From contig JAJXEL010000002.1 of assembly GCA_021639925.1 (NCBI GenBank), positions 930 through 35,430 of the forward strand: a stretch of 34,501 nt of DNA, in the 5' to 3' direction. Shown piece by piece: positions 350 through 20,406 of the stretch. Numbering within the stretch: the stretch's first letter is position 1; each line of letters begins with the position of its first letter. The notes below the pieces were generated by a model. The model saw only the letters and a list, made by a program, of their open reading frames with translations. It was not told the origin of the DNA and did no database searches. Source of the stretch: Alphaproteobacteria bacterium (GTDB taxonomy: Bacteria > Pseudomonadota > Alphaproteobacteria > CAAGCB01 > CAG-977). The translations under genes and the position numbers were made by a program.

Positions 350-385
350 AGGAACACCTAAGCAATTTTGGACAGGATACTGACT
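331..385. repeat. copy 2 of the 55-bp direct repeat; spans the last 8 codons and stop of the repressor, the RBS, and the first 6 codons of the downstream ORF
   Basis: Identical to 1-55. The offset is exactly 330 bp, a multiple of 3. Confidence 0.95.
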
Positions 386-780
386 ATCTGTGCAGATGAA
401 GGCTTGTTTTCAGACGTAAAAAGGTCATATATAGCTAAAATAAGCTCCGCTTTTTTAGCGGGATTTAAAGCTCTATTCGTTGCAGTTAAAGATTCTTCAA
501 CGGTTTCAATGGCTGAGAGCAATTCCTTTCTGTTCGGTTTTACAGACGTTCCCTCAGAAAATTCTCTTCCCGTAGCCAACCAGTCCAAACTTACACCAGC
601 AACGTTTGCCAAAGAAGCAACCGCTTTAAAAGAGGGTTTTGCTTTTCCGTCTCTCCATTTCGCAACTTGTTCAGCCGTCACCCCGGCTATTTGCGCTGCA
701 TTTTGAAGTGTTCCGATTCTGTTAAGAACAGTTTTAAAGCCAGTTTCAAAATAATCATCGTTACTTGAAACTTTTGTCAT
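358..780 (-). CDS. prophage repressor, CI/XRE-type helix-turn-helix, no S24 peptidase domain (140 aa from the ATG)
   Basis: HTH segment LQNAAQIAGVTAEQVAKWRDGKAKPSFKAVASLANVAGVSLDWLATG. It is divergent from ner across an operator-rich AT-rich intergenic region. The ATG at 780 has AGGA upstream, whereas the track start at 786 is TTG. Confidence 0.75.
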   Translation of the reverse strand: MTKVSSNDDYFETGFKTVLNRIGTLQNAAQIAGVTAEQVAKWRDGKAKPSFKAVASLANVAGVSLDWLATGREFSEGTSVKPNRKELLSAIETVEESLTATNRALNPAKKAELILAIYDLFTSENKPSSAQIVSILSKIA

Positions 781-799
781 CGACAAAAATCCTTTTTCA

Positions 800-1594: not shown

Positions 1595-2063
1595 AGCGAT
1601 GTCAAAGAAATTCAAAGACACACAGACGCTTGATTTATTTGAACAGGTTTATCCTGTCCGCAGACCGCCGGTGATCTCCCACACCGTTGATTTGAGCGGC
1701 AAGATCAAGCGTTTGGTGTCTTTGATTTTAAAAGAGAGCCCTAAAAGCAGAGAGCAACTGGCTGCCGAAATGTCGGAAGCTATGGATTGCCCGTCTTTTA
1801 GTAAGGCGATGTTGGACAATTATTCCAGCGAAGCCAACGAGCTCCATCAAATTCCTTTGTATCGCTTTATCGTCCTCGTCCGCGTGGCAGATGCCGCGTG
1901 GGCGTGGGACGAATTGTTAAAAGACGAAGGCTTTACCGTTTTGTTTGGAGACGAAGCTCTTTTAGCTGAACGCGGTCGTGTTGCCCAACAAATTGAAGAA
2001 TTGAAAAAATATCAAAAAGAATTGAACTCGGTTGCGCCCGTTAAAATACGGAGGCGGTCATGA
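1584..2063 (+). CDS. hypothetical early protein (alternative start ATG 1599)
   Basis: Uninterrupted ORF whose stop overlaps the MuA start (ATGA at 2060-2063). No family recognised. Confidence 0.5.
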   Translation: MKVKAMSKKFKDTQTLDLFEQVYPVRRPPVISHTVDLSGKIKRLVSLILKESPKSREQLAAEMSEAMDCPSFSKAMLDNYSSEANELHQIPLYRFIVLVRVADAAWAWDELLKDEGFTVLFGDEALLAERGRVAQQIEELKKYQKELNSVAPVKIRRRS

Positions 2064-4129
2064 AAGAATGGTTCACGCCGTTAGAATTAGCAGAGTTAAA
2101 TCTGCCGAGTTTGCCTAAAACGACACAAGGAATGTCTAAAAAGGCCGATACCGAACACTGGCAATCGCGTCCTCGTTGCGGTCGCGGCGGCGGCAAAGAA
2201 TATAACATATCGAGCTTACCCGCTAAAGCCAAAGAAGAATTGGCGCGCCGTTCATTGTCAAGCGTTCCGGAACGCCGGTCAAAGGCCGTGATAGAACGTC
2301 CTGATGACGCCGATCTGTCCGAAGCCAAAGCATGGCAACGTGAAACAGCTGAAGCGCGGGCGGCGGTTTTGGATGCGATTGACAATCTGGCGGTAACGTG
2401 CGGAAAAAATAATGCGATTAAAGCCGTTTTAAACGGACTTAAAAACGGAACGTTGGAACCGTCTTTCATTGAACTGATCCGCAAAGCGAACGCAAAGACC
2501 GGCGAAACGGTCAAATTATCCCGCGCCAGCTTGTTTAATTGGTACAAACTGCGTGAAACGGCAGGCTTAAAAGGATTGATGCCCACCCCTGCCAAAGATG
2601 AACAGATTGTTGCGCCGGAATGGTTTGAATCGTTCGCCCGTTTGTATTTCAGACCGCAAAAGCCGTCTTTGATGTCCTGTATTGAAATAATGCAGGAAAA
2701 TATGCCCGCGCTTGCCCCAAGTTACAGACAGGCGAAATTTTACCTTGAAAAAATCGGGAAACTGCTGGCGAACAAAGGACGTGTCGGCGCGCGTGAAGGG
2801 AAAGCTTTTCGGGCTTACGTTTCCCGCGACGTATCGCATTTATGGCCGGGGGCGATTTACTGCGCCGACGGACATACGTTCGATGCTGAAATCGCGCACC
2901 CGATCCACGGCAAGCCGTTCCGCCCCGAAGTCACGACGATTATAGACGTATATACCCGCAAAGCCGTCGGGTTCAGTTTGAACATCGTCGAATCGACCGC
3001 GTCCGTTATGGACAGCTTGATCCATGCAGTCACAACAAACGGTATTCCGGACGTGTTTTATGTCGATAACGGCAACGGCTTTAATAATACGACGGTTGAT
3101 ATGTTCTGCGCCCGTTTGGGTATCACGAAAAAGAACAGCATTGCCTACAATTCCCAAGCACGCGGCGTGATTGAGCGTTTGCATCAGACGATTTGGGTCA
3201 AAGCGGCGAAAATGCTTCCGACTTACATGGGCAAACCGATGGATCCGGAAGCCAAGCAAAAGGTTTTTCATATCAACCGCCGCGAAGTCAAACAAGACGG
3301 ACGAAGCCGTTTATTACCGGATTGGCAGGGTTTTGTCGCATATTGCGAACGGTGTTTTGACGCCTATAACGATCACCCGCATTCTTTTTTGCCGGTCATT
3401 GTAGATTCTGAAACAGGCAGAAAACGTCACATGACGCCGAACGAAGCTTGGGAAGCGGGAAATCCTGAATTTCCCGATTATCGTCCCGACGTGCTAACGC
3501 CGGCGGAAACAGATGATTTATCGCGTCCTTACGTTGTCCGTAAATGTTCGCGCTGTTTGGTCAGCCTGTTTAATAACGTGTACGGTTCGCATCTGCTGAC
3601 ACATTACCACGATGAACAGGTTGCCGTCGGCTTTAACATTCATGATGCGTCAAAAGTATGGGTGCGCGAATGGGACGGGAAACTTCCGGGACGTTTAATT
3701 TGCGTCGCCCGTTTTGAAGAAAACAAACGCGCCTTCATGCCCGTATCTTATGACGACAAGAAGAAATTACAAAGGGCGCAGGGACGGCTTGCGCGTCTTG
3801 ATGAACAGCAGAAAGAAGTCTTGGAAGAATTGGGACAAAGGTATTTGCCTGCCCCCGAAACCGTGCCCGTGACGGCAGAAGAAGCCGCCAAAAACGAAGA
3901 ATTTTTAAAAGAATTTGAGGAAGAGCAGAACGCTCAATCCGTTGCCGATATTGACACGCCTGCGGCTTGGTTCCGCAAGGCCGTCAATATCAAGCAAAAA
4001 ATCGATAACGGAGAAAGTATTGATCCGGAAGATCGTCGTTGGTTCGCCAAATATTCCAAGTCACCCGAATACATTCAACGCATGGATTTTGCGCATGATT
4101 TCGGTATGGAAGCGGCTCTGACGGCATAA
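2060..4129 (+). CDS. A: Mu-type DDE transposase (MuA-like)
   Basis: N-terminal Mu-type DNA-binding segment (EWFTPLELAELNLPSLPKTTQGMSKKA). DDE core blocks IYCADGHTFD, FYVDNGNGF and RGVIERLHQTIW. 689 aa, GGAGG RBS, positioned before the MuB-like ATPase. Confidence 0.9.
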   Translation: MKEWFTPLELAELNLPSLPKTTQGMSKKADTEHWQSRPRCGRGGGKEYNISSLPAKAKEELARRSLSSVPERRSKAVIERPDDADLSEAKAWQRETAEARAAVLDAIDNLAVTCGKNNAIKAVLNGLKNGTLEPSFIELIRKANAKTGETVKLSRASLFNWYKLRETAGLKGLMPTPAKDEQIVAPEWFESFARLYFRPQKPSLMSCIEIMQENMPALAPSYRQAKFYLEKIGKLLANKGRVGAREGKAFRAYVSRDVSHLWPGAIYCADGHTFDAEIAHPIHGKPFRPEVTTIIDVYTRKAVGFSLNIVESTASVMDSLIHAVTTNGIPDVFYVDNGNGFNNTTVDMFCARLGITKKNSIAYNSQARGVIERLHQTIWVKAAKMLPTYMGKPMDPEAKQKVFHINRREVKQDGRSRLLPDWQGFVAYCERCFDAYNDHPHSFLPVIVDSETGRKRHMTPNEAWEAGNPEFPDYRPDVLTPAETDDLSRPYVVRKCSRCLVSLFNNVYGSHLLTHYHDEQVAVGFNIHDASKVWVREWDGKLPGRLICVARFEENKRAFMPVSYDDKKKLQRAQGRLARLDEQQKEVLEELGQRYLPAPETVPVTAEEAAKNEEFLKEFEEEQNAQSVADIDTPAAWFRKAVNIKQKIDNGESIDPEDRRWFAKYSKSPEYIQRMDFAHDFGMEAALTA

Positions 4130-4178: not shown

Positions 4179-4922
4179 ATGACAAAAATGAATGAAACTG
4201 TCAAGAACACTATAGCCCCGCTTCGCAATGTCGCGTTATTGAACGAGCTGGTCTATCGCGTCAAAAACCGCGATTACGGATTGCCCGGCATGGCGACTTT
4301 TTACGGATTTTCGGGGTATGGCAAGACGTTCGCGGCAATTTACGCGGCGAACAAGCACAAAGCCTATCACGTCCAAGTCAAAAGCGTTTGGACGCCGAAA
4401 AAGCTCTGCGCTTCGATTTTGGGTGAAATGGGCATTCAGCCGGCTTACACAATTCCCGACATGATGGATCAGATCGGCGAAGAACTCTCACTTTCCCAAC
4501 GTCCTTTAATCATAGATGAAGCGGATTTCTTGGTTCAAAAGCGTATGATTGAAGTTGTACGCGATATTTACGAAAGTTCGCAGGCCACAATCATTTTGAT
4601 CGGCGAAGAAGCAATGCCGGTCAAGCTTCAAAAGTGGGAACGTGTCCACGGGCGTATGCTTGACTGGGTGGCGGCGCAACCGGCGTCAATCGACGACGTT
4701 AAACATCTGGCTAAATTGTATGCGAACGGCGTTACGGTAGAGCAGGATTTATGTGAAAAAATCTTAAAAGAAAGTGCGGGATCCGTCCGCCGAGTTTGTG
4801 TCAACCTTGACCGCGTGCGTGAATTTGCAACGACAAAAGGGTTGAAAACAGTCGGTTCGGCTGATTATCAGCGCGATTTCTTTACGGGCGTGCCTCCGAT
4901 GGCGCGGAAAGCGGGGCTGTGA
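4179..4922 (+). CDS. B: MuB-like AAA+ transposition ATPase
   Basis: Walker A GFSGYGKTFA and Walker B LIIDEADFL. 247 aa, immediately downstream of the transposase. Confidence 0.85.
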   Translation: MTKMNETVKNTIAPLRNVALLNELVYRVKNRDYGLPGMATFYGFSGYGKTFAAIYAANKHKAYHVQVKSVWTPKKLCASILGEMGIQPAYTIPDMMDQIGEELSLSQRPLIIDEADFLVQKRMIEVVRDIYESSQATIILIGEEAMPVKLQKWERVHGRMLDWVAAQPASIDDVKHLAKLYANGVTVEQDLCEKILKESAGSVRRVCVNLDRVREFATTKGLKTVGSADYQRDFFTGVPPMARKAGL

Positions 4923-8692: not shown

Positions 8693-9091
8693 ATGTCGCA
8701 GTTGACAGGAGTTTTGGCGGAATTTGAAGAAATCGCCGGCTTTGCCGCAGCAATCAAAATTGCGGCGGTCAAGGGCGGAACGGTTGCTTATATCCCGCAA
8801 CCGCGAAACCTGAAGCCCGAACACTGGCTTTGCGCGGCAATCGGGTCGGAAGACGCCATTAAAATCGCAAAACAATTCGGCGGCAATGAAATTGAAATTC
8901 CTTTGGGCCCGTTCGGCGGGAATCGCGGCCGCGTGTGGCGCATTATCCGTCAGGCAATCAAAGACGGCCATTCCGCCGCCAAAGCCGCCCGCTTGGCCGG
9001 CGTAACGATGCGCACCGTCCGCCGCCACAAATCCGGCGAAACAGCGGGAAATAAGGAAAAGGAGGGTCAGGGAGTGTTGTTTTTATTTTAA
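8693..9091 (+). CDS. mor: Mor/C-family transcriptional activator
   Basis: GGTVAYIP block (compare GGGQVYIP in Mu Mor) and C-terminal HTH SAAKAARLAGVTMRTVRRH. About 130 aa, last gene of the early/middle block. Confidence 0.6.
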   Translation: MSQLTGVLAEFEEIAGFAAAIKIAAVKGGTVAYIPQPRNLKPEHWLCAAIGSEDAIKIAKQFGGNEIEIPLGPFGGNRGRVWRIIRQAIKDGHSAAKAARLAGVTMRTVRRHKSGETAGNKEKEGQGVLFLF

Positions 9092-11364
9092 CATCCAAGG
9101 GATGATTTCAGTTCCCTTATTTCTTTTAAGTGAGTATTTCTATTCTTCGTTTCTTCTTCTTCCAACAACCATTTTTCTGCATCATCTAACATACTTAAAA
9201 TCTCTTTTTCTTTTAAGCCATGTAACCTGACATAAGAGGCAAGCTGCTCAGAAAAAATATAGACATGATAAGCTTTTCGTCTATCACTTTCATAACAATT
9301 CTTTAATATTCTTAAGCTCTTAACAAGTTCTTCTTTCGCTTCATTATTTTTTCTTGAAGCTTCAAAATTTGCGTTGAACATAATAACGGCTTGAGTGTTT
9401 AACAAAGAAAAATCGCCCAAAAATGAAGATGAGATCGCTTTTTGAATCCAAAAAAATGCATCTGTGAAATTTTTTTGTTTAGATAAATAAAGCGAAAACT
9501 GCTGCTTTAAGTAAGGAGAATTATCTTTTTGCATAGCATTCATATAAAATAATTTTCCTTCTTCTATATTTTTAAAGTATTTATATATATAATCTGAATC
9601 ATAGCCTCTACGTTTAAAGATATAGTAATCAACGATATTAATCGGCGATATCCTTTCATGGAATTGAATTAAAACCTCCTTCATTAAATCTATAGAAGCA
9701 TTGTTTAAAATCGTCTCTTTTAATATTTTTGATCTAATTTCAAAAAATTCTTGATTTTCTTTGTATTTTACGCTTGATGGATCTATATCTACGATTAGAT
9801 TTCTTAATTTTTCAATGGACGCCACGGTATCCAAAATAGGTTTTTTAGAAAAAGAAATTATCATATTCATGGACATCGGTAGACGACAGTCTTTCATATA
9901 GCAAATAGCTAACAAAATTTTTAAAAGTTCCGGATCATTAAGCTCCAGATCAGAAAACAAACGAGAAAAACGTTCTTTTAATGAAGAATTCTTTATGTTT
10001 TTTTCCACAAACTCAAAAATGGTGTCATTATCTATAAAACGAAAATAAGTTGTTTTTTTGAGATTTAAAGGGATTGTGTTGAATAAATTTGAAGCATCTT
10101 TTTTTGATATATTATCAATTATTATTTTAGAAAAATTCTCTTTTTTTATTTTATGAGAAACTGTTTCATAAAAATAAATTAAATCTGTAGCGATAATTTG
10201 TATATTTTTCTCTTCTTGAAAGACGCGCAGAGCATCAACATCATTTACAAAATCATCTATGAAAATCGTCAACTTTTGCCTCTCTTTTTTTATAAGATTA
10301 ACAATATACAATGCTATTTCTTTCGTCGGAGAGGTAAGATATATTTTTTGCTTTCCTTTTAACTCACAAGCCAATTGCATTAACAAAGTACTTTTCCCAG
10401 AAGACGGAGTCCCAAGAAGTAAAATATTTTCATTTTTATATATTTTTTCAAGTACATTATGAAATGTAGATATTTTATACAGACCACCCCCCAAAACATC
10501 AATCCACTCGGGTTGATTTCCACAATAAAAATCATCAATATTTCTAAAATAGGGGGCAATAGTTGGGACAGAATATCTAGAAATGCTATTTTGTCTCTGT
10601 GTAATCTTTTTTTGGTTTTGAAGCTCTTTAATATGTTTTAAAAAGTCTTTTACATCGCCCGTTATCGGCTTAAATCCTAAAGATTCATAATATTCTGTTT
10701 TTTCTATATTATTTGATATAATCCAGAAATTCTTTTTGTTCCTTGAGTTTGAGCACGCCCTATTTATAGCAGCAAGGACATCATTATCTTTCATAGATGT
10801 CCCGATAAAGACAGTAGGACACTCTTCACATTGAATAGACAATCTATTGAATAAAGTGTTCTCATATTGCAAATGCCCCGTAGCCATGTCTATAGCCGAA
10901 AAAGGCATTTTTTGATTATTTAAAATACTTCCATGTAAAGGTATATAACGAATGATTTCAGGGGAAGAGGGTTCTCCTCTTATAGTAACATCACGTAGTG
11001 AAAATGAAGAATTATCTTCATATATCTTATATATCAAATCGTCAACGTTAACTGTAAAAATATTATTACAATTTAATTTTAATATATTTTTATATTCTGG
11101 ATCATATTCATCAACGGTAAATGTTTCTTTAAGAAATTTTTCTAACTCTCCAGGGAATCTAGCTTTAATTATAGACGTAACCTCTTGTAAATCATCACCT
11201 GAAACCTGATACTTTTTTTTCAGTTGCATACATAATGCTTGACCTATGGGAAGATTCTCTTTACTTTTATTTTTGGCGTAAACAGAAAATCCTGCACCTA
11301 AGAAAAGATTGATCTCATTTTGGAGATCTTGGTTGAAAATTTCTATCATTTCAGATTTCAGCAT
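9088..11364 (-). CDS. SIR2-like / P-loop NTPase (STAND-like) / helical-repeat protein; Avs5 (AVAST type V)-like defence candidate, 758 aa
   Basis: SIR2_2-type blocks LFLGAGFS, FTVNVDDL, IPLHGS and VFIGTSMKDNDV. Walker A LLLGTPSSGKSTLLMQLA and Walker B LTIFIDDF. Long helical C-terminus. The ATG at 11364 is preceded by GAGGAG at a 6-nt spacing. The track start (11451) lies in a terminator hairpin. Strongly AT-rich: hand counts of two 60-nt lines gave 15% and 35% G+C, versus about 63% in a flanking line. Confidence 0.8.
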   Translation of the reverse strand: MLKSEMIEIFNQDLQNEINLFLGAGFSVYAKNKSKENLPIGQALCMQLKKKYQVSGDDLQEVTSIIKARFPGELEKFLKETFTVDEYDPEYKNILKLNCNNIFTVNVDDLIYKIYEDNSSFSLRDVTIRGEPSSPEIIRYIPLHGSILNNQKMPFSAIDMATGHLQYENTLFNRLSIQCEECPTVFIGTSMKDNDVLAAINRACSNSRNKKNFWIISNNIEKTEYYESLGFKPITGDVKDFLKHIKELQNQKKITQRQNSISRYSVPTIAPYFRNIDDFYCGNQPEWIDVLGGGLYKISTFHNVLEKIYKNENILLLGTPSSGKSTLLMQLACELKGKQKIYLTSPTKEIALYIVNLIKKERQKLTIFIDDFVNDVDALRVFQEEKNIQIIATDLIYFYETVSHKIKKENFSKIIIDNISKKDASNLFNTIPLNLKKTTYFRFIDNDTIFEFVEKNIKNSSLKERFSRLFSDLELNDPELLKILLAICYMKDCRLPMSMNMIISFSKKPILDTVASIEKLRNLIVDIDPSSVKYKENQEFFEIRSKILKETILNNASIDLMKEVLIQFHERISPINIVDYYIFKRRGYDSDYIYKYFKNIEEGKLFYMNAMQKDNSPYLKQQFSLYLSKQKNFTDAFFWIQKAISSSFLGDFSLLNTQAVIMFNANFEASRKNNEAKEELVKSLRILKNCYESDRRKAYHVYIFSEQLASYVRLHGLKEKEILSMLDDAEKWLLEEEETKNRNTHLKEIRELKSSLGC

Positions 11365-11404: not shown

Positions 11405-11429
11405 TCCCCCTGACAAATGACACAATTTT
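11405..11429. repeat. copy A of a shared 25-bp element tccccctgacaaatgacacaatttt, in the 5' flank of the SIR2-NTPase gene
   Basis: Identical to 18196-18220. It lies 41-65 nt upstream of the ATG at 11364 on the minus strand. The track ORFs read it in different frames in the two copies, so it is non-coding. Confidence 0.9.
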
Positions 11430-11432
11430 TTA

Positions 11433-11460
11433 GAATGGCAGATTCTGCCATTCTTTTTTT
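11433..11460 (+). terminator. strong intrinsic terminator oriented for + strand transcription
   Basis: gaatggcag (11433-11441) pairs with ctgccattc (11445-11453): 9-bp perfect stem, 3-nt loop, then 7 T (11454-11460). Confidence 0.7.
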
Positions 11461-14334: not shown

Positions 14335-15688
14335 GAAAAAGCAATCGGCGGAAAAGTTTGTTGAATCTGTGGGCATTTCCGTAGAAGAAGAAGGCTTTAC
14401 AAAACTGACGGGCAACAAAGACCGCTCTTTATCGTCATTAACGCAGGAAAGAATGCAGGAGCTGGCTGTTTTCCTGTGGAAAAGTAATCCTCTAGCCAAC
14501 CGTATTATTGAATTGCCGCTTGTTTATTTGCTGGCCGAAGGCGTAACAATGAGCGTTCAAGATGAAACGGCGCAAGCATGGTTGGACGAATTTTGGAATG
14601 ACCCGATCAATCAAATAGACGTCAAACTGCCGAAAAAAGTCCGCGAAATGTCCTTGTTCGGCGAACAGTGCTGGCCTGTTTTTAAAAATCCGACAAACGG
14701 CGCGGTACGGCTGGGGTATCTGGATCCCGGACTGATTAAAGAAGTAAAGACAGACCCCGATAATACCGAGCAGCCGATCGGCGTTATTACAAAGGCTTTG
14801 GGCAGAAAGCGCAAATCAAAAAAGTACCGAATCATCGTTCCCGGTTCGGAAAACATTTTCGGAGAAGAAGCAAAGAAAATCCGCGAAGAATTTAACGACG
14901 GCGAATGTTTTTACTTTAACATTAACGCGCTGTCGTCGTCTTCGCGGGGGTTGTCGGATTTATTGGCGACAATGGACTGGCTGGATTTGTATGATAAAGC
15001 TCTGTTCGGCGAGGTTGAACGCTGGGACGCTCTGCGGTCTTTTATCTGGGACGTGACGCTGCGCGGAGCTACCGAAGAAACCGTCAAAAAGCGCGCTTCG
15101 GAAATCGAAGTGCCGTCTTCGGGCGGCGTGCGCGTGCATAACGATGCGGAAACATGGCAGGCGGTTACTCCTGATTTACAGGCGGCAAACGGTGCGGAAA
15201 ACGCGAGGACGGTGCGCAATCATATTTTGGGCGGATCTACATTGCCGGAACACTGGTACGGCGGCGGTGGAGACGTCAACCGTTCAACAGCGGGCGAAAT
15301 GGGCGAACCGACCTTTAAAACGTTCAAGTTTCGCCAGACCGAGTGGAAACATATCCTTGAAACCGTTTGTTTTTACGCCGTTTATTCAAGATTGGAAAAA
15401 ACGGGAAATATCCCCGAAGACCTGCGGGATTACCGCCCCGTCGCACAGTTCCCCGAATTAACGCACCGCGACACGTCGGTTTATGCGGCGGCGTTGCAGC
15501 AAACCGTCGTCGCCGTCGGCATTGCCGTTGAAAAAGGCATGATGACGGAAGAAACGGCCGTATCCGTTATCGGTTCAATGATTTCCCGTATCGGCATTGA
15601 AATTGACCCTGTCGAAGAATTGGAAAAAGCCCGTGCTAAAGCCCACATTCAGGCAGAGGACGACATTTACGATGAACAAGACGTTTGA
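14321..15688 (+). CDS. portal protein (Mu gp29-like, DUF935)
   Basis: 455 aa, AGGAG RBS, located between terminase and MuF. Acidic C-terminus. Confidence 0.75.
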   Translation: MFGFKKKQSAEKFVESVGISVEEEGFTKLTGNKDRSLSSLTQERMQELAVFLWKSNPLANRIIELPLVYLLAEGVTMSVQDETAQAWLDEFWNDPINQIDVKLPKKVREMSLFGEQCWPVFKNPTNGAVRLGYLDPGLIKEVKTDPDNTEQPIGVITKALGRKRKSKKYRIIVPGSENIFGEEAKKIREEFNDGECFYFNINALSSSSRGLSDLLATMDWLDLYDKALFGEVERWDALRSFIWDVTLRGATEETVKKRASEIEVPSSGGVRVHNDAETWQAVTPDLQAANGAENARTVRNHILGGSTLPEHWYGGGGDVNRSTAGEMGEPTFKTFKFRQTEWKHILETVCFYAVYSRLEKTGNIPEDLRDYRPVAQFPELTHRDTSVYAAALQQTVVAVGIAVEKGMMTEETAVSVIGSMISRIGIEIDPVEELEKARAKAHIQAEDDIYDEQDV

Positions 15689-17018
15689 AGCGGAAAGAAA
15701 AAAGCAGTTAAAACGCTTTACGGACAGCGTTCGGCAAACGAACGCGGACATTGACGCTTTTTTAAAAAAGGCACGTCAGGAAATTAAAATGCGCTTGGCC
15801 GAAGCCCCCTCCGATTATCAGATATGGGCTTTGACAAACGTTCAAAAAGACATCGAACGCGTCGCCGAAGAATTAAAGTCCGAACTGCAGGCCGCGGGAA
15901 CGACAGGGTTTGACGCGGCGATAAATATCGGCGCGGCTGTTGTGGACGAACCGCTTAAATCCGCATTTAATTATGATTTAAACGCCCGCGTTCGGCAGGC
16001 AAGCACGGAACAAATCAAAGCAATGCGTTCTTTTTTAACCGACCGTTTGGCAGACGTCGGCGAACAGGCGAAAAAGAAAATAAACGAACAGCTGGGGCTG
16101 TGCCTGATTGGGGCGCAAAATCCGTTTCAGGCGGCGCGGGAAATAGCGGCGCATCTGGGAACAAACGGCAGATCCCGCGCGCGGCGGATTGTTAATACGG
16201 AACTCGGCCGCGCCTTTTCCGTAGCGACGCAGGAACGGTTAAAACAAGCGCAGGAAGCCGGATTAAAAATGAAAAAGCAGTGGCGGCGGTCGGGAAAAAT
16301 CCACAGCCGTTTAACGCACGATCTGGCGGACGGGCAAGTCGTTGACGCCGACAAACCGTTTATTGTCGGCGGCGTTAAAATGATGTATCCGCGCGATCCG
16401 TCCGCCCCCGTTTCGGAAACAATCAACTGCGGGTGTGTTTGCCTGCCCTATATGGACGATTGGGAAGTCGAACACCCCGCCGACGTTCCCTTTACCGTTG
16501 AAGAATTAAACAAAAGCCCCGAAAAGCGGATTGTCCAAGACATCAGGCGGGAAGATTACCGCAACTGGGCGGAAAAAATATTAAGCCGGGCGGACGGCGT
16601 GCGTCCGGACGGCACGTCCAAAACCGCAGGAACGATCAGCGCAGATATTTTACAGGCGTTAAAGGTGCGCGGTCTGGAACCTGCCAGCCCGGACATCAGC
16701 ATTACGGACAAACAGCTGATCCACCTGTCGCGCAGTGTTAAAAAAGAACGCGGACAACAGGTTGATTTAAACACAATTAAAAACCTGCCCGACCTGTTGA
16801 ATAAAGCCGACGTTGTGTTGCGCTCCAAAAACAAAAACGAGCTGGTCTATGCGTTTAAACGCCCCGACGGGCTGTATGACAAAGTGGCCGTGAACCTGCG
16901 CCGAAAAGAGGATAACGCCAAAAACGCCCAAACAAGAAACTGGATTGTAACGGCGGGGAAAATGGAAGAAAGAAATATCAGAGATACAAATAGTTATGAT
17001 GTTCTGAAAGAACGTTAA
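15672..17018 (+). CDS. MuF (gp30)-like head morphogenesis protein with a C-terminal extension of about 180 aa
   Basis: MuF-type core RARRIVNTELGRAFSVATQER...HSRLTHDLADGQVV...INCGCVC. The ATG at 15672 overlaps the portal 3' end. Confidence 0.75.
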   Translation: MNKTFEAERKKQLKRFTDSVRQTNADIDAFLKKARQEIKMRLAEAPSDYQIWALTNVQKDIERVAEELKSELQAAGTTGFDAAINIGAAVVDEPLKSAFNYDLNARVRQASTEQIKAMRSFLTDRLADVGEQAKKKINEQLGLCLIGAQNPFQAAREIAAHLGTNGRSRARRIVNTELGRAFSVATQERLKQAQEAGLKMKKQWRRSGKIHSRLTHDLADGQVVDADKPFIVGGVKMMYPRDPSAPVSETINCGCVCLPYMDDWEVEHPADVPFTVEELNKSPEKRIVQDIRREDYRNWAEKILSRADGVRPDGTSKTAGTISADILQALKVRGLEPASPDISITDKQLIHLSRSVKKERGQQVDLNTIKNLPDLLNKADVVLRSKNKNELVYAFKRPDGLYDKVAVNLRRKEDNAKNAQTRNWIVTAGKMEERNIRDTNSYDVLKER

Positions 17019-17019
17019 T

Positions 17020-17117
17020 GGAGTGGTCAAGGCGGGTACGCTACTCTCCGCTACATCCGAGCCCTTGTTACAGGGGTCTGACCGTCATCCGATTTCCTTG
17101 TCAAGCAAGACCACTCC
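17020..17117. other. 98-nt GC-rich element closed by a perfect 9-bp long-range stem; candidate structured RNA or miniature inverted-repeat element
   Basis: ggagtggtc (17020-17028) pairs with gaccactcc (17109-17117). Internal hairpins at 17031-17036/17047-17052 and 17059-17065/17072-17078. CATCCGA direct repeat at 17054-17060 and 17086-17092. Confidence 0.4.
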
Positions 17118-17170
17118 AATAATTTAATTATACGTTTTCCGTGAATAAAAATCAAGAAAGGAGGTTTAAG

Positions 17171-17287
17171 ATGATAGAAACCGTACAAATACCCGTCTGT
17201 ACCTGTCCGGAGGTCATTGATTTGTTTTATCCGAGCCTTTTCCTTTTCGCCGGATTTGCCCTTTGGCTGATGTTTAAACACGCATAA
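17171..17287 (+). CDS. 38-aa hydrophobic peptide ORF, not in the supplied track
   Basis: AAAGGAGG lies 7 nt upstream of the ATG at 17171. Translation MIETVQIPVCTCPEVIDLFYPSLFLFAGFALWLMFKHA, stop TAA at 17285-17287, followed by a terminator. Confidence 0.5.
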   Translation: MIETVQIPVCTCPEVIDLFYPSLFLFAGFALWLMFKHA

Positions 17288-17305
17288 AAAAACAAAAACC
17301 GAAAT

Positions 17306-17337
17306 AAAGCCGTTTAACAGCGGCTTTGTCATTTTTT
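17306..17337. terminator. bidirectional intrinsic terminator between the convergent 38-aa ORF and the 263-aa gene
   Basis: The stem 17306-17314 / 17319-17327 (aaagccgtt / agcggcttt, one G-U pair) has loop taac. There are 6 T at 17332-17337 on the + strand and a T-rich tract on the minus strand (rc of 17286-17305). Confidence 0.65.
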
Positions 17338-17383
17338 GGCTATGGTTCTTACGTCTTTATCCCCAAAACGCACACAGACCCGT

Positions 17384-18175
17384 TTAATACCCGTTTAACG
17401 GCGATGTTTTTAAGGCAAAAACATTTTTATACATTTCATCACGGAGCAAAAGAGGTATTGACTTAAGCAAATCATACTGAGAATAAAAATAGTAAAGAAT
17501 CAGAGAGGCAATACGCATTGCAATATTTGCATCATCACGTTGGGATTGGGAAAGATAAGATTGAAGGGCATAAGGACTGTGGTGTTTGTACGCGCATAAC
17601 AACTGATACATTTTCCGTTCCATGAAAATATGAGGTAGAATCTCTCTTTCCGCATCAGACAAAGACGGATCGTTTTGTTTTTCAGAAAGCTGTTTTTCCA
17701 TCTTTTCCAGTGTGGAACCGTGCCAGACTTTCCTATAATTCTTTCGGTTTAAGTAATCCGCATCGCTTTTAAATGTGACATTCGGTAATTTAAAGCGTTC
17801 CGGGTTTATTTGTTTAATTTTATACAAATATTTTCCTGCTTTTGCGGGCTGTTGGCTTAGGTGAGGCAAGCTTTCAATCCACCCAAAATCAAAAAATTCT
17901 TTAATTTTTTCTTCTGTATTGCAAATCAGGAGCCATTCCAAAACGATGAACTGTTCAAACATTTGACAGGCAATAATGCCGCCGCTGTACGGGTCGGCCG
18001 AAGATAAATATAGAACGCTTCTTGATGCGTTAAGAGCGCGTTTAAAAAATAAACTTTTTATCCTATCCTTTATCGTTCTTTCAGGAAAATTTTGTTTTTC
18101 CCCGAATCTGCACAGCTTTTTTAAGGTTTTCCTTAGCTCTTCCGTAGAGCAGTTATAATAATCTTCCATACACAT
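17384..18175 (-). CDS. hypothetical cargo protein (263 aa from ATG 18175; ATG 18169 is also possible), no family recognised
   Basis: Long minus-strand ORF inside an otherwise + strand late operon. Lower G+C than the flanks (hand counts of two lines gave 32% and 43%). The track start at 18214 is GTG and lies inside the shared 25-bp element. No clear SD sequence. Confidence 0.6.
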   Translation of the reverse strand: MCMEDYYNCSTEELRKTLKKLCRFGEKQNFPERTIKDRIKSLFFKRALNASRSVLYLSSADPYSGGIIACQMFEQFIVLEWLLICNTEEKIKEFFDFGWIESLPHLSQQPAKAGKYLYKIKQINPERFKLPNVTFKSDADYLNRKNYRKVWHGSTLEKMEKQLSEKQNDPSLSDAEREILPHIFMERKMYQLLCAYKHHSPYALQSYLSQSQRDDANIAMRIASLILYYFYSQYDLLKSIPLLLRDEMYKNVFALKTSPLNGY

Positions 18176-18195
18176 TTTAACAAAAACAGGGGCTT

Positions 18196-18220
18196 TCCCC
18201 CTGACAAATGACACAATTTT
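18196..18220. repeat. copy B of the shared 25-bp element tccccctgacaaatgacacaatttt, in the 5' flank of the 263-aa gene
   Basis: Identical to 11405-11429. It lies 21-45 nt upstream of the ATG at 18175 on the minus strand. Confidence 0.9.
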
Positions 18221-18289
18221 GAACGATTCCCGAATGCCTTATGGTGTCCTTATCGGTTGCAAAATGCAAGAACTTTTAAGGAGACCGCT

Positions 18290-18511
18290 ATGGCAAACAA
18301 GGAAAACGAAGCGTCGAAAAATGAAGCGGAAGCAAAAAAGGTTTCCGCCGGCATCGGCAAAGCAGACGTTTTAAAAATTCTGTGCGACAACAAAGTTGAA
18401 ATCATCGGACGCAAAGGTATTGCCGAACGTGACGTGCTGTCTTTTGCCGAACGGGGAAACGACGTCGTTGTCGTGACCTGCGACGGACGCAAACACGTTT
18501 TGAAAAAATAA
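18290..18511 (+). CDS. hypothetical small protein (73 aa)
   Basis: TAAGGAG lies 6 nt upstream of the ATG at 18290. Lys/Glu-rich N-terminus. Directly upstream of the protease-capsid gene. Confidence 0.5.
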   Translation: MANKENEASKNEAEAKKVSAGIGKADVLKILCDNKVEIIGRKGIAERDVLSFAERGNDVVVVTCDGRKHVLKK

Positions 18512-18522
18512 GGGGCGCAGGA

Positions 18523-20406
18523 ATGGATACGACTTTTCTGGAGGCTTTGGAAACAACGGAAAAAGGCGCGAAACGCTTTAAAATCCGCGTCATTTCCGCA
18601 GGCGTTTCCAAAAACGGAAACTATTATTCTCCGGCCGTCTTGCGCGAAGCCGCACCGTTGTTTGACGGCGTGCGCGTTCTGGTTCGTTCCGACGAAGAAC
18701 ACATTCAGGGCAAAGGAAAAGATTTCCGCAACTTGATCGGCCGGTTGGCAAATCCCCGTTTTATTGAAAGCACGGCAGAAATTCAGGCTGATTTTGAACT
18801 GATCGAACCGAACGGCGCGATTGCCGTGAAACTGCGCGAAGCGTTTGACGGCGGTATGACGGGATTGTTCGGTTTTTCGATTGACGCGGCGGCTTTAGCC
18901 AAACCGGCGCGCATTAACGGACAAACGGTTCGCGAGGCCTGCAAAATCACGCAGGTCAAATCCGTTGACCTGATCGTCGAACCGGGCGCGAACGGCGGCA
19001 TTATCGACTTTATCGAAGCAGTGAATGAAGAAGGGCAAAAAATGAGTGAAAAAGAGAAAGAAACGAAAGAAGAAACAAGCGTTCAGGAAGCCGCGCCGAC
19101 AATTACGGCGCAGGAGATTGACGATAAAATCCGAATGGTTGAAGCGCGCGCAAACGCCAAAGCGACGATTGCCGCCAGCTCTTTGCCGGAGATGGCGAAA
19201 GCGCGGTTGAAAAAGCATTTTGAAACATTGGCGGATTTTAAAGAAGCCGACGTCGAAACCGCTATTAAGGACGAACTGGACTATTTGGCGAAATTCACGG
19301 AAGCAAACGTCAAAGATCTGGGCACGGGACGCGCTGCGGTTACAAAAGATCGTTTGGAAACGGTTTCGGAACGATTGGATGCCTTTTTTGACGAAGGTCA
19401 TAAAGACCACCGTCAGGCGTTGTCGTTCAAGGAAGCATACGTTGATTTGACGGGCGACGCCAAAGTTTCGGGACGCGTTGAAAATTTCACCGAAGCATTG
19501 ACTTCAACGTCGTTTAGTAACGTTTTGGGCGACGCCATTACCCGCCGTTTGGTCAAAGAATACAACAACAAAACCCAGCTGGACGCTTGGCGAAAATTTG
19601 CCAGCATTGTTCCCGTGTCCGACTTCCGCGAACAAAAACGCGTTCGCATGGGCGGTTACGGCGATCTGGCAACGGTTAGCGAAGCGGCGGCGTATGCAGC
19701 CGTGACCAGTCCGACGGACGACGTTGCGAAGTATTCGGCGGCCAAGCGCGGCGGATTAGAAAAAATCACGATTGAAATGATTAAAAACGACGACGTCGGC
19801 GCAATCCGCCAGATCCCGATTAAACTGGCGCGAGCGGCAAAAAGAACGCTGTCGAAATTCGCGTTCAACCTGATTGTTTCCAACCCGACACTTGGTGATT
19901 CAAAGACGCTGTTCCACGCCGACCACGGCAATCTGGGGACGGTCGCTTTGTCTGCGGGCAGTTTTACAGTGCGCCGTCTGGCAATGATGCAACAAAAAGA
20001 AGCCGGATCGAACGAAGTGCTGTCCATTCCGCCCGCGTTTCTGCTGGTGCCGCCAGAATTGGAAGAAACGGCGTACAACCTGTTTGTCAGAAACACGAAC
20101 AATGACCCGCAGTACGTCCAGACAGTCAAACCCGAAATCATTCCGATCTGGTACGCGACGGACGCCGATGACTGGTATCTGGCCGCCGATCCTGCCGACA
20201 TTACCGGCATTGAAATCGGATTTTTGGACGGTAACGAAGAACCCGAACTGTTTGTTCAGGACAACCCGACTTCGGGCAGCGTGTTCACGAATGACCAGAT
20301 CACTTACAAAATCCGCCATATCTACGGCGGGGCGGTCATTGATTACCGCGCGTTTCAGGGATCGGTCGTTACGGCGCAGCAAAGCGGCGGCGGCAGTAGC
20401 GGTTAA
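18523..20406 (+). CDS. fused prohead protease-like / coiled-coil scaffold / HK97-fold major capsid protein (627 aa)
   Basis: The N-terminal ~170 aa carry S78-like blocks (VLVRSDEEHIQGKG, LFGFSIDAAAL). A charged helical linker covers about residues 180-300. The C-terminal ~320 aa are capsid-like and end in YGGAVIDYRAFQGS. No separate protease or capsid ORF exists in the head module. Confidence 0.65.
   Translation: MDTTFLEALETTEKGAKRFKIRVISAGVSKNGNYYSPAVLREAAPLFDGVRVLVRSDEEHIQGKGKDFRNLIGRLANPRFIESTAEIQADFELIEPNGAIAVKLREAFDGGMTGLFGFSIDAAALAKPARINGQTVREACKITQVKSVDLIVEPGANGGIIDFIEAVNEEGQKMSEKEKETKEETSVQEAAPTITAQEIDDKIRMVEARANAKATIAASSLPEMAKARLKKHFETLADFKEADVETAIKDELDYLAKFTEANVKDLGTGRAAVTKDRLETVSERLDAFFDEGHKDHRQALSFKEAYVDLTGDAKVSGRVENFTEALTSTSFSNVLGDAITRRLVKEYNNKTQLDAWRKFASIVPVSDFREQKRVRMGGYGDLATVSEAAAYAAVTSPTDDVAKYSAAKRGGLEKITIEMIKNDDVGAIRQIPIKLARAAKRTLSKFAFNLIVSNPTLGDSKTLFHADHGNLGTVALSAGSFTVRRLAMMQQKEAGSNEVLSIPPAFLLVPPELEETAYNLFVRNTNNDPQYVQTVKPEIIPIWYATDADDWYLAADPADITGIEIGFLDGNEEPELFVQDNPTSGSVFTNDQITYKIRHIYGGAVIDYRAFQGSVVTAQQSGGGSSG

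Follow-up and report, generated by a model that had tools for sequence, protein, structure and literature searches.

The moron concept, reportedly owed to Hendrix and colleagues, holds that autonomous extra genes can stand between conserved phage genes, and P2/P4 prophages and satellites are said to carry hot spots of defence genes, as Rousset et al. reportedly described in 2022. In the Mu-like phages of Pseudomonas, the homologue of Mu gene G is separated from the protease/scaffold gene by an anti-CRISPR (acr) region (PMC3993853). Mu-like prophages of E. coli have been found to carry defence systems (PMC9519451). Mu has a strong gyrase site (SGS) near genes G and I in the centre of its genome, which must be central to work (PMC10052514, PMC3820752). 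According to a preprint, moreover, genes of the family DUF5677 are enriched, and co-oriented, beside those serine recombinases that mark defence islands (PMC12632615). The present analysis concerns a DUF5677 gene of 263 amino acids (aa) which lies, together with an open reading frame (ORF) of 38 aa, between the genes for MuF and a protease-capsid fusion. It was studied in a stretch of 34,501 nucleotides (nt) from an alphaproteobacterial assembly (GCA_021639925.1, contig JAJXEL010000002.1), called the window throughout, in which all positions are counted from the first letter. The window is a transposable, Mu-like prophage whose host is an uncultured alphaproteobacterium of the gut.

By comparison with related prophages it is evident that the junction between MuF and the protease-capsid gene consists of two independent exchange units, termed slot A and slot B, and not of one system. 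The 263-aa gene is very probably hot-spot cargo rather than one half of a two-gene system, as had been suggested in an earlier note on this DNA, which had regarded the 263-aa protein and the convergent 38-aa peptide as a possible undescribed module.

Two exchange units at one junction

The junction is made up as follows, from left to right.

15597-17018, MuF gene, end of the portal-region block
17015-17122, plus strand, stem-closed structured element of about 105 nt directly 3' of the MuF stop codon
17127-17170, plus strand, conserved leader with a Shine-Dalgarno sequence (GGAGG at 17160-17164)
17168-17293, plus strand, slot A, beginning right after the conserved leader and ribosome-binding site (RBS) and ending at the terminator
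17171-17287, plus strand, 38-aa ORF (MIETVQIPVCTCPEVIDLFYPSLFLFAGFALWLMFKHA), the cargo of slot A
17304-17329, both strands, bidirectional terminator-like hairpin between an A-run (left) and T6 (right)
17356-17419, conserved spacer of the phage backbone, left flank of slot B
about 17420-18175, slot B, flanked by the spacer (left) and by the palindrome and the 25-nt element (right)
17384-18175, minus strand, DUF5677 (PF18928) ORF, the cargo of slot B, 263 aa from its ATG (MCMEDYYNC...)
18187-18203, palindrome CAGGGGCTTTCCCCCTG adjoining the start of the DUF5677 gene, on the minus strand a hairpin followed by TTTTTGTT
18196-18220, plus strand, copy 2 of the 25-nt repeat TCCCCCTGACAAATGACACAATTTT, bounding slot B on the right and the head-gene block at its 5' edge
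18291-18511, plus strand, conserved 73-aa gene opening the head operon, right neighbour of the hot spot
18523-20406, protease-capsid fusion gene, after the 73-aa gene and followed by the tail genes

Fourteen sibling loci were compared, further siblings having been brought in by a scan with the capsid protein. Close homologues of the DUF5677 protein (86-91% identity) were found at the same junction in L001-L005, L026 and L030, one of the first five coming from a human-gut assembly labelled "uncultured Rhodospirillaceae", and together with the window these represent five lineages (window, L026, L003/L004, L001 and L005/L030). The siblings from the capsid scan that lack the gene, among them L025, L028, L029 and L034, do so despite capsid genes that are 85-96% identical. 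In these and other siblings the flanks of slot B are retained: the spacer at 17356-17419 is about 90% identical in L028, L029, L032, L033 and L034, all of which are devoid of DUF5677, and the right flank extends from 18176 onward. What lies between the flanks differs. L025 has a SocA/Panacea antitoxin (PF13274, E = 6e-17) and, after it, a protein of 156 aa whose C-terminal part contains hydrophobic segments; L034 has the single-gene defence candidate PDC-S42 of PADLOC (E = 6e-104), DUF7946 in Pfam; in L029 and L032 a membrane protein of 137 aa is encoded on the minus strand; and L028 has next to nothing. Conserved flanks thus enclose mutually exclusive cargo, with an empty site in one sibling. 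The DUF5677 gene is horizontally acquired, dispensable for the phage, and allelic with toxin-antitoxin and defence-candidate genes.

In line with the earlier note, the island has a low G + C content, with 0.37-0.43 at about 17000-18400 versus 0.52-0.55 outside; for the DUF5677 gene the values are 0.37-0.39 versus 0.50-0.55 in its flanks. Both ORFs, the bidirectional terminator and the stem-closed element were likewise found where that note had placed them, the acr precedent was correctly cited there (PMC3993853), and its view of the junction as an accessory hot spot is borne out by the different cargo between the same flanks and the empty slot in one sibling. In Mae-JY22, the nearest deposited phage, this junction holds nothing but a gene of 75 aa.

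Slot A is delimited just as sharply. In L001, L005 and L030 the leader shows 92-98% identity as far as 17166/17167, where homology ends, and its GGAGG stands six bases 5' of the ATG of the 38-aa ORF. Leader and RBS serve any small ORF that occupies the slot. Homology breaks at 17167/17168 and 17293/17294 set the peptide apart as a cassette of its own. The peptide has a single C-terminal hydrophobic segment (residues 18-35, Kyte-Doolittle mean 1.86). Its ORF is intact only in the window and in L026 (74% identity); codon 20 has changed from TAT to the nonsense codon TAG in L003/L004, and an unrelated family of 73/79 aa, often accompanied by extra small ORFs, takes its place in L001, L005, L030, L025, L028, L029 and L034. 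Of the five DUF5677 lineages, two therefore have it intact, one has it interrupted, and in the other two unrelated ORFs take its place. Since differences between the window and L003 cluster at third codon positions (9 of 15), the peptide gene is, as judged by this pattern, probably real, yet dispensable.

The alternatives seen in slot A comprise the 73/79-aa cysteine-rich family (MKI[KR]LPFNR...), ORFs of 100-102 aa and of 84-85 aa, and a 51-aa membrane peptide with two helices. Neither Pfam nor PADLOC gave a match for the alternatives scanned (ORFs of 79, 84, 102 and 134 aa), the scanned small ORFs of slot A and the head operon had no Pfam match, and no helix-turn-helix (HTH) gene follows slot A. 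In position and form, slot A resembles an acr-type locus.

A divergent DUF5677 protein and its relatives

The 263-aa protein, which the earlier note had considered unassignable, is by its profile match a divergent member of DUF5677. The match to PF18928 (E = 1.8e-9; 38.3 bits against a gathering cut-off of 27.1) spans residues 40-212 and model positions 4-163 of 166, and the close homologues P0001-P0003 carry the same precomputed assignment. Relatives are few: an exhaustive HMMER search of 1.84 billion representatives returned only 23 at E <= 1e-3, of which, as aligned, 18 match DUF5677 themselves, and outside the protein's own phage group the identity to the nearest representatives is 20-35% (over the aligned stretch or the whole alignment). 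A word-indexed profile search added no further relatives, tblastn against 50,697 phage and 72,556 plasmid records gave no hit, a search of IMG/VR gave no match to the protein, and neither it nor the 38-aa peptide was matched in PADLOC, NCBIfam or PHROGs.

The residues E74, Y147, W151, Y190, C194, K197, H198 and P201 are all present in the window protein, and each is kept in 18-23 of the 23 aligned sequences; all of them except P201 are counted as invariant or nearly invariant in the family. They belong to three conserved motifs, i.e., a glutamate in helix 3, an NRxNY...W loop and YxxLCxYKHxxP. The AlphaFold2 model is all alpha-helical and confident, with a mean predicted local distance difference test score (pLDDT) of 86.6 and a predicted template modelling score (pTM) of 0.85. 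In the C-terminal tail (residues 256-263) the pLDDT drops below 50, and other family members have nothing that corresponds to it. It is in fact the phage backbone spacer, and not the cassette, that supplies the final 12 codons together with the stop (17384-17419).

The remote homology search that the earlier note had proposed thus led to a family in its sequence-based part, and its structural part, a comparison with Foldseek, remained without a match at E <= 0.001 both in the PDB (best E = 0.087, all TM-scores below 0.42) and among the viral models of BFVD. A profile search of PDB sequences returned chance kinase matches only (E about 0.07-0.2). The same note had looked for a HEPN Rx4-6H and seen only imperfect spacings, and there is no conserved Rx4-6H in the family: at any one alignment column the motif occurs in at most 3 of the 23 sequences, and the REILPH of the window protein sits in a variable, gapped region of the alignment.

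As called mechanically, the ORF is longer and begins with a GTG at 18214 (276 aa). This start was dropped because a stop codon closes the frame in L003, and the conserved start is therefore the ATG at 18175 or the next ATG at 18169. A sigma-70-like sequence (TTGTTA-17-TATTAT, 18183-18155) was rejected as a promoter because of its position within the ORF and because such matches are no more numerous than expected by chance. The ratio of nonsynonymous to synonymous substitutions (dN/dS) of 0.14-0.28 among four phages indicates purifying selection; the gene is real and selectively maintained. Between the window and L003, the synonymous divergence (dS) of the DUF5677 gene is 0.55, less than half of the 1.20 found for the adjacent capsid gene, which suggests that these phages exchanged the cargo after the divergence of their backbones.

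Nine informative contigs show what surrounds distant DUF5677 relatives. Defence genes, known or candidate, are adjacent in four of them: an AbiU-type AIPR protein, SIR2, a PD-(D/E)XK protein and two methyltransferases adjoin the gene in L011; in L013-15 it lies directly downstream of PDC-S11 (E = 6e-114), by a type I restriction remnant; Hachiman HamA/HamB and HsdR are found nearby in L016; and in L023 it has a CapP-like M78 peptidase on one side and two C5 methylases with McrB/McrC-like genes on the other. Four others are mobile elements, the gene following serine recombinases in L007 and L010, being part of a phage tail module in L018 and lying beside F-type transfer genes in L020. In the ninth, L021, it is placed between a zinc-ribbon/HNH-like protein and DUF4238. 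A survey of this kind had been proposed in the earlier note, among other things to look for an association with defence genes, which was observed for the four relatives named, and for the company of the small ORF, which was not: a related peptide occurs in none of the nine neighbourhoods.

A gene for an LMWPc phosphatase stands beside DUF5677 in two of the nine, at 965-1384 of L011, where it overlaps the start of the DUF5677 gene, and at 6019-6483 of L016, and could be a partner gene or a coincidence. The idea of a recurring partner of the distant relatives was dropped, this being the only gene that recurs and doing so in just these two. The scanned neighbours of the distant relatives yielded no Pfam match above the curated cut-off.

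Non-coding elements and a second cargo site

Further features of the prophage are the following.

358-786, minus strand, HTH repressor-like gene
2060-4129, Mu-type transposase gene
4179-4922, gene for an AAA+ B-like protein, followed in order by GemA, Mor (8693-9091) and a zf-DksA/TraR gene
9088-11364, minus strand, 758-aa gene with SIR2_2 and STAND NTPase (nSTAND_NTPase5/nSTAND3) domains, in the first low-GC island
11405-11429, plus strand, copy 1 of the 25-nt repeat TCCCCCTGACAAATGACACAATTTT, between Mor with the cargo of site 1 and the first late gene (zf-DksA/TraR)

The two copies of the 25-nt repeat are identical, with none expected by chance, and both cargo hot spots lie immediately upstream of a copy. 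At the head operon the element is present in 13 of the 14 sibling loci (L001, L003, L005, L025-L030 and L032-L034 keep it whatever their cargo), L031 starting downstream of the site, and the core is kept at both sites in all four loci that span both, i.e., L001, L003, L005 and the window. At site 1 conservation starts exactly at the element and continues into the first late gene, the left side varying between phages. By analogy with Plys and PI of Mu, we infer that the element may mark the 5' edge of two late transcription units; it is probably a Mor-dependent late promoter, activator site or operator, all of them putative. It was not possible to place a -10 consistently at the two copies. A common minus-strand promoter for the cargo was considered and rejected, since the element is kept at site 1 in L003, which has no cargo there, and in L001, whose cargo is on the phage strand, and since no common -10 follows it on the minus strand. 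At 11431-11460 the window has CTGACA and, after a 15-nt spacer, the -10-like TAGAAT, overlapping a plus-strand hairpin GAATGGCAGATTCTGCCATTC with T7. A terminator overlapping a promoter in this manner could block transcription that reads through from the early region, while RNAs beginning at the promoter would lack the 5' arm.

Site 1 is occupied in the window by the first low-GC island (9.1-11.4 kb, G + C content 0.30). Its 758-aa gene has a good Shine-Dalgarno sequence (GAGGAG) before the ATG at 11364 and has the appearance of a defence gene, Avs-like or SIR2-STAND; PADLOC gave a single, weak match for the protein (mad8, E = 1e-6). In the siblings, the site holds a PDC-M41A/B pair (L005), an HSDR_N_2 protein on the phage strand (L001), or nothing (L003).

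The stem-closed element 3' of MuF has a closing stem of 14 nt with 93% complementarity (GGAGTGGTC/GACCACTCC, arms 17015-17028 and 17109-17122) and folds with -37.5 kcal/mol (z = -2.7 to -2.9). While the closing arms are unchanged in L003, the interior has diverged, and in L005 (11155-11290, compared with 17012-17126 of the window) an unrelated sequence of similar size has its own 9-bp closing stem (CTGCTACAG/CTGTAGCAG). All three post-MuF elements (window, L003 and L005) fold better than shuffled sequences (z = -2.7 to -3.5). Structure appears to be kept at this position without sequence (window versus L005, each with a closing stem of 9-10 bp), which suggests a structural role as RNA or DNA. 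An attC-like site of integrons was dismissed, given that there is no GTTRRRY/RYYYAAC core and that the prophage has no integron integrase; Rfam and tRNA/tmRNA scans of the non-coding elements gave no match.

The terminator-like hairpin at 17304-17329 lies between the convergent peptide and DUF5677 genes and is conserved in the DUF5677-bearing siblings as well as in L025. In total the region contains 8 terminator-like sites, versus 2.5 +/- 2.0 in shuffled sequences, the palindrome being the top minus-strand match. The latter is found in most siblings whatever their cargo (L025, L026, L029, L030, L034) and is degraded in L003 and L027.

With respect to MuF itself, residues 359-437 in its C-terminal part gave weak, sub-threshold matches to PBECR3 (E = 2e-4), LPD3 and MuF_C, which are domains of polyvalent phage proteins, and its last approximately 20 codons (16957-17018) vary between siblings. 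L001 (11875-12691) has, 3' of its own MuF stop codon, a second, orphan MuF 3' end of the window type together with the stem-closed element, and a stretch of 159 nt (window 16799-16957) occurs twice in this locus; the duplicated 3' end looks like a recombination scar. At the left end of the window, a perfect direct repeat of 55 nt (1-55 and 331-385, spacing 330 nt) overlaps the 3' end of the repressor-like ORF and could be a tandem duplication or an assembly artefact.

Readings of the locus and known systems

The conflict-related role suggested in the earlier note is plausible from the context. In our favoured reading, for which the balance of the evidence is about even, the DUF5677 gene is a stand-alone accessory gene of the prophage that acts in defence or exclusion. 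On the late-gene strand, the shared leader and RBS would express whichever small ORF resides in slot A, here the 38-aa peptide of membrane type, and slot B holds a single horizontally acquired gene on the opposite strand, coding for a soluble, all-helical DUF5677 protein. Because it lies on the opposite strand and has its own terminator, this gene would have a transcription unit separate from the late operons and would most likely be expressed in the lysogen. Its product might then act alone in the cytoplasm against other or superinfecting phages or mobile elements, via a pocket formed by E74, Y147, W151, Y190, C194, K197 and H198 that is possibly enzymatic or ligand-sensing. In favour of this reading are the alternative cargo of slot B, the defence-type cargo in the other low-GC island of this phage family, the neighbours of the distant relatives, and the published observations on serine recombinases and on Mu-like prophages of E. 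coli. An extended proposal, tentative and in our opinion rather doubtful, is that DUF5677 represents a new single-protein anti-phage or anti-mobile-element family, with a fold unlike solved ones and an active pocket of the seven residues, and that the centre of gut Mu-like prophages is a two-slot exchange site, in which defence-type cargo and small acr-like or membrane ORFs are set against a conserved late-promoter element.

Several observations weigh against a function in defence or exclusion. The evidence for function is all guilt by association, and the PDC entries of PADLOC are candidates only. In the sole published test of a DUF5677 gene, in which ORFs expressed in E. faecalis were assayed against six phages, the DUF5677 ORF was not among the five protective ones (PMC12632615). 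Among the models of PADLOC-DB 2.0, none matched the window protein at E <= 10 or nine of its DUF5677 relatives at E <= 0.01, and fold and motif searches give no pointer to a mechanism. As the five DUF5677 lineages are close relatives, their shared cargo may go back to one acquisition. In addition, no sigma-70-like promoter was found for the gene (two consensus matches versus 3.1 expected by chance), neither of its ATG codons is preceded by a Shine-Dalgarno sequence, and a hairpin with a T-run stands immediately upstream of its start.

Of the rival explanations, the one that survives best, unlikely as we consider it, takes the gene for a lysogenic-conversion gene with a host-fitness or regulatory role, unconnected with phage conflict and caught in a permissive slot. 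The family has no known function, its only defence assay was negative, and hot spots collect morons other than defence genes too. On the other hand, the distant relatives adjoin defence genes in four of nine neighbourhoods and mobile elements in four more, and the alternative cargo of the same slot is of the conflict type.

A role in the service of the phage, as a counter-defence factor or another helper of the lytic cycle, is more improbable still. It would agree with the acr site known between Mu G and the protease/scaffold gene, with the relatives in a phage tail module and beside conjugation genes, and with the retention of the gene in five phage lineages. However, relatives in chromosomal defence islands, directly 3' of PDC-S11 or a CapP-like regulator, are atypical for counter-defence; the gene is opposite to the head genes and far larger than a typical Acr, has no Aca-like HTH gene with it, and is allelic with cargo of the toxin-antitoxin or defence-candidate type. 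The small ORFs of slot A, on the head-gene strand, suit an acr-like locus better.

That the 263-aa protein and the peptide form one abortive infection (Abi), toxin-antitoxin or superinfection-exclusion module, as the earlier note had proposed, is very unlikely, even though the two genes are adjacent and convergent with a common terminator and the peptide is found only in DUF5677 phages (window, L026 and, as a broken copy, L003/L004). The peptide is intact in only two of the five lineages and absent from all nine distant neighbourhoods; DUF5677 is under purifying selection also where the peptide is broken (L003/L004) or replaced (L001, L005/L030); and the two have separate recombination boundaries, with a conserved terminator-bearing spacer in between, i.e., they are exchanged separately.

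It is equally unlikely that the region matters mainly in cis, as a strong gyrase site or late promoter, and that the ORF is incidental to an AT-rich spacer. The island at 17.0-18.3 kb does lie at the midpoint of the 34.5-kb window, which runs from early to tail genes, and the 25-nt and structured elements flank the slots, but its dN/dS of 0.14-0.28 and its match in Pfam clearly mark the ORF as coding, and a sequence that is absent or unrelated in siblings cannot be a required site. As siblings may have slot B empty or occupied by unrelated DNA, a role in cis would be confined to the conserved non-coding flanks.

Finally, an ordinary virion or morphogenesis protein conserved at the Mu-like junction, as the position between two head genes might suggest and as the earlier note had named as the outcome that would refute it, is already refuted by the siblings without the gene (L025, L028, L029 and L034). 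The opposite strand, the low G + C content, the lack of a PHROG family, the lack of matches in deposited phages (tblastn, 50,697 records) or IMG/VR, and the nearest phage without an equivalent also speak against it.

If the extended proposal given above should hold, the centre of gut Mu-like prophages would be a general place to seek new conflict genes. An "unassignable" ORF has become a testable candidate with a confident model, seven residues to mutate and natural allelic controls in the siblings (an empty slot, PDC-S42 and a Panacea toxin-antitoxin pair), and one false lead has been removed, as the unit of protein and peptide does not exist. A positive test would provide the first function for DUF5677 and would add the Mu-like prophages of uncultured gut bacteria to the families of hot spots that can be mined for defence genes.

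With the acr locus of the JBD30/D3112 group, the present locus shares the same kind of junction and its variable content. However, Acr proteins are small, encoded on the head-gene strand and followed by an aca regulator, whereas the DUF5677 protein, of 263 aa and encoded on the other strand, lacks an HTH partner; in form, slot A alone is similar. Like the prophage and satellite hot spots, the junction has conserved flanks and mutually exclusive low-GC cargo that includes known or candidate defence genes and is absent in some siblings, but here the hot spot is part of a Mu-like prophage, in the middle of its genome and flanked by MuF and the protease-capsid gene; a further slot for small ORFs adjoins it, and both cargo sites abut the 25-nt element. 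As in phage morons, an extra gene of deviant composition and with its own terminator stands between genes that are adjacent in relatives, although no convincing promoter or Shine-Dalgarno sequence was found for the DUF5677 gene.

In being all-helical, stand-alone, about 250 aa long and located on mobile elements, the protein is reminiscent of the HEPN-type Abi proteins (AbiV, AbiU2, AbiD/F), from which it differs by having no conserved Rx4-6H, no PADLOC Abi match and no structural match to a solved HEPN protein. The SGS of Mu lies centrally near the G/I junction, to which the island at the midpoint of the window may correspond in position, but it is a cis-acting DNA site, while the content of slot B is exchangeable. 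Taken together, the family and the kind of genomic setting are already known, and the two-slot layout, as well as the position of both cargo sites next to one conserved 25-nt element, may be new.

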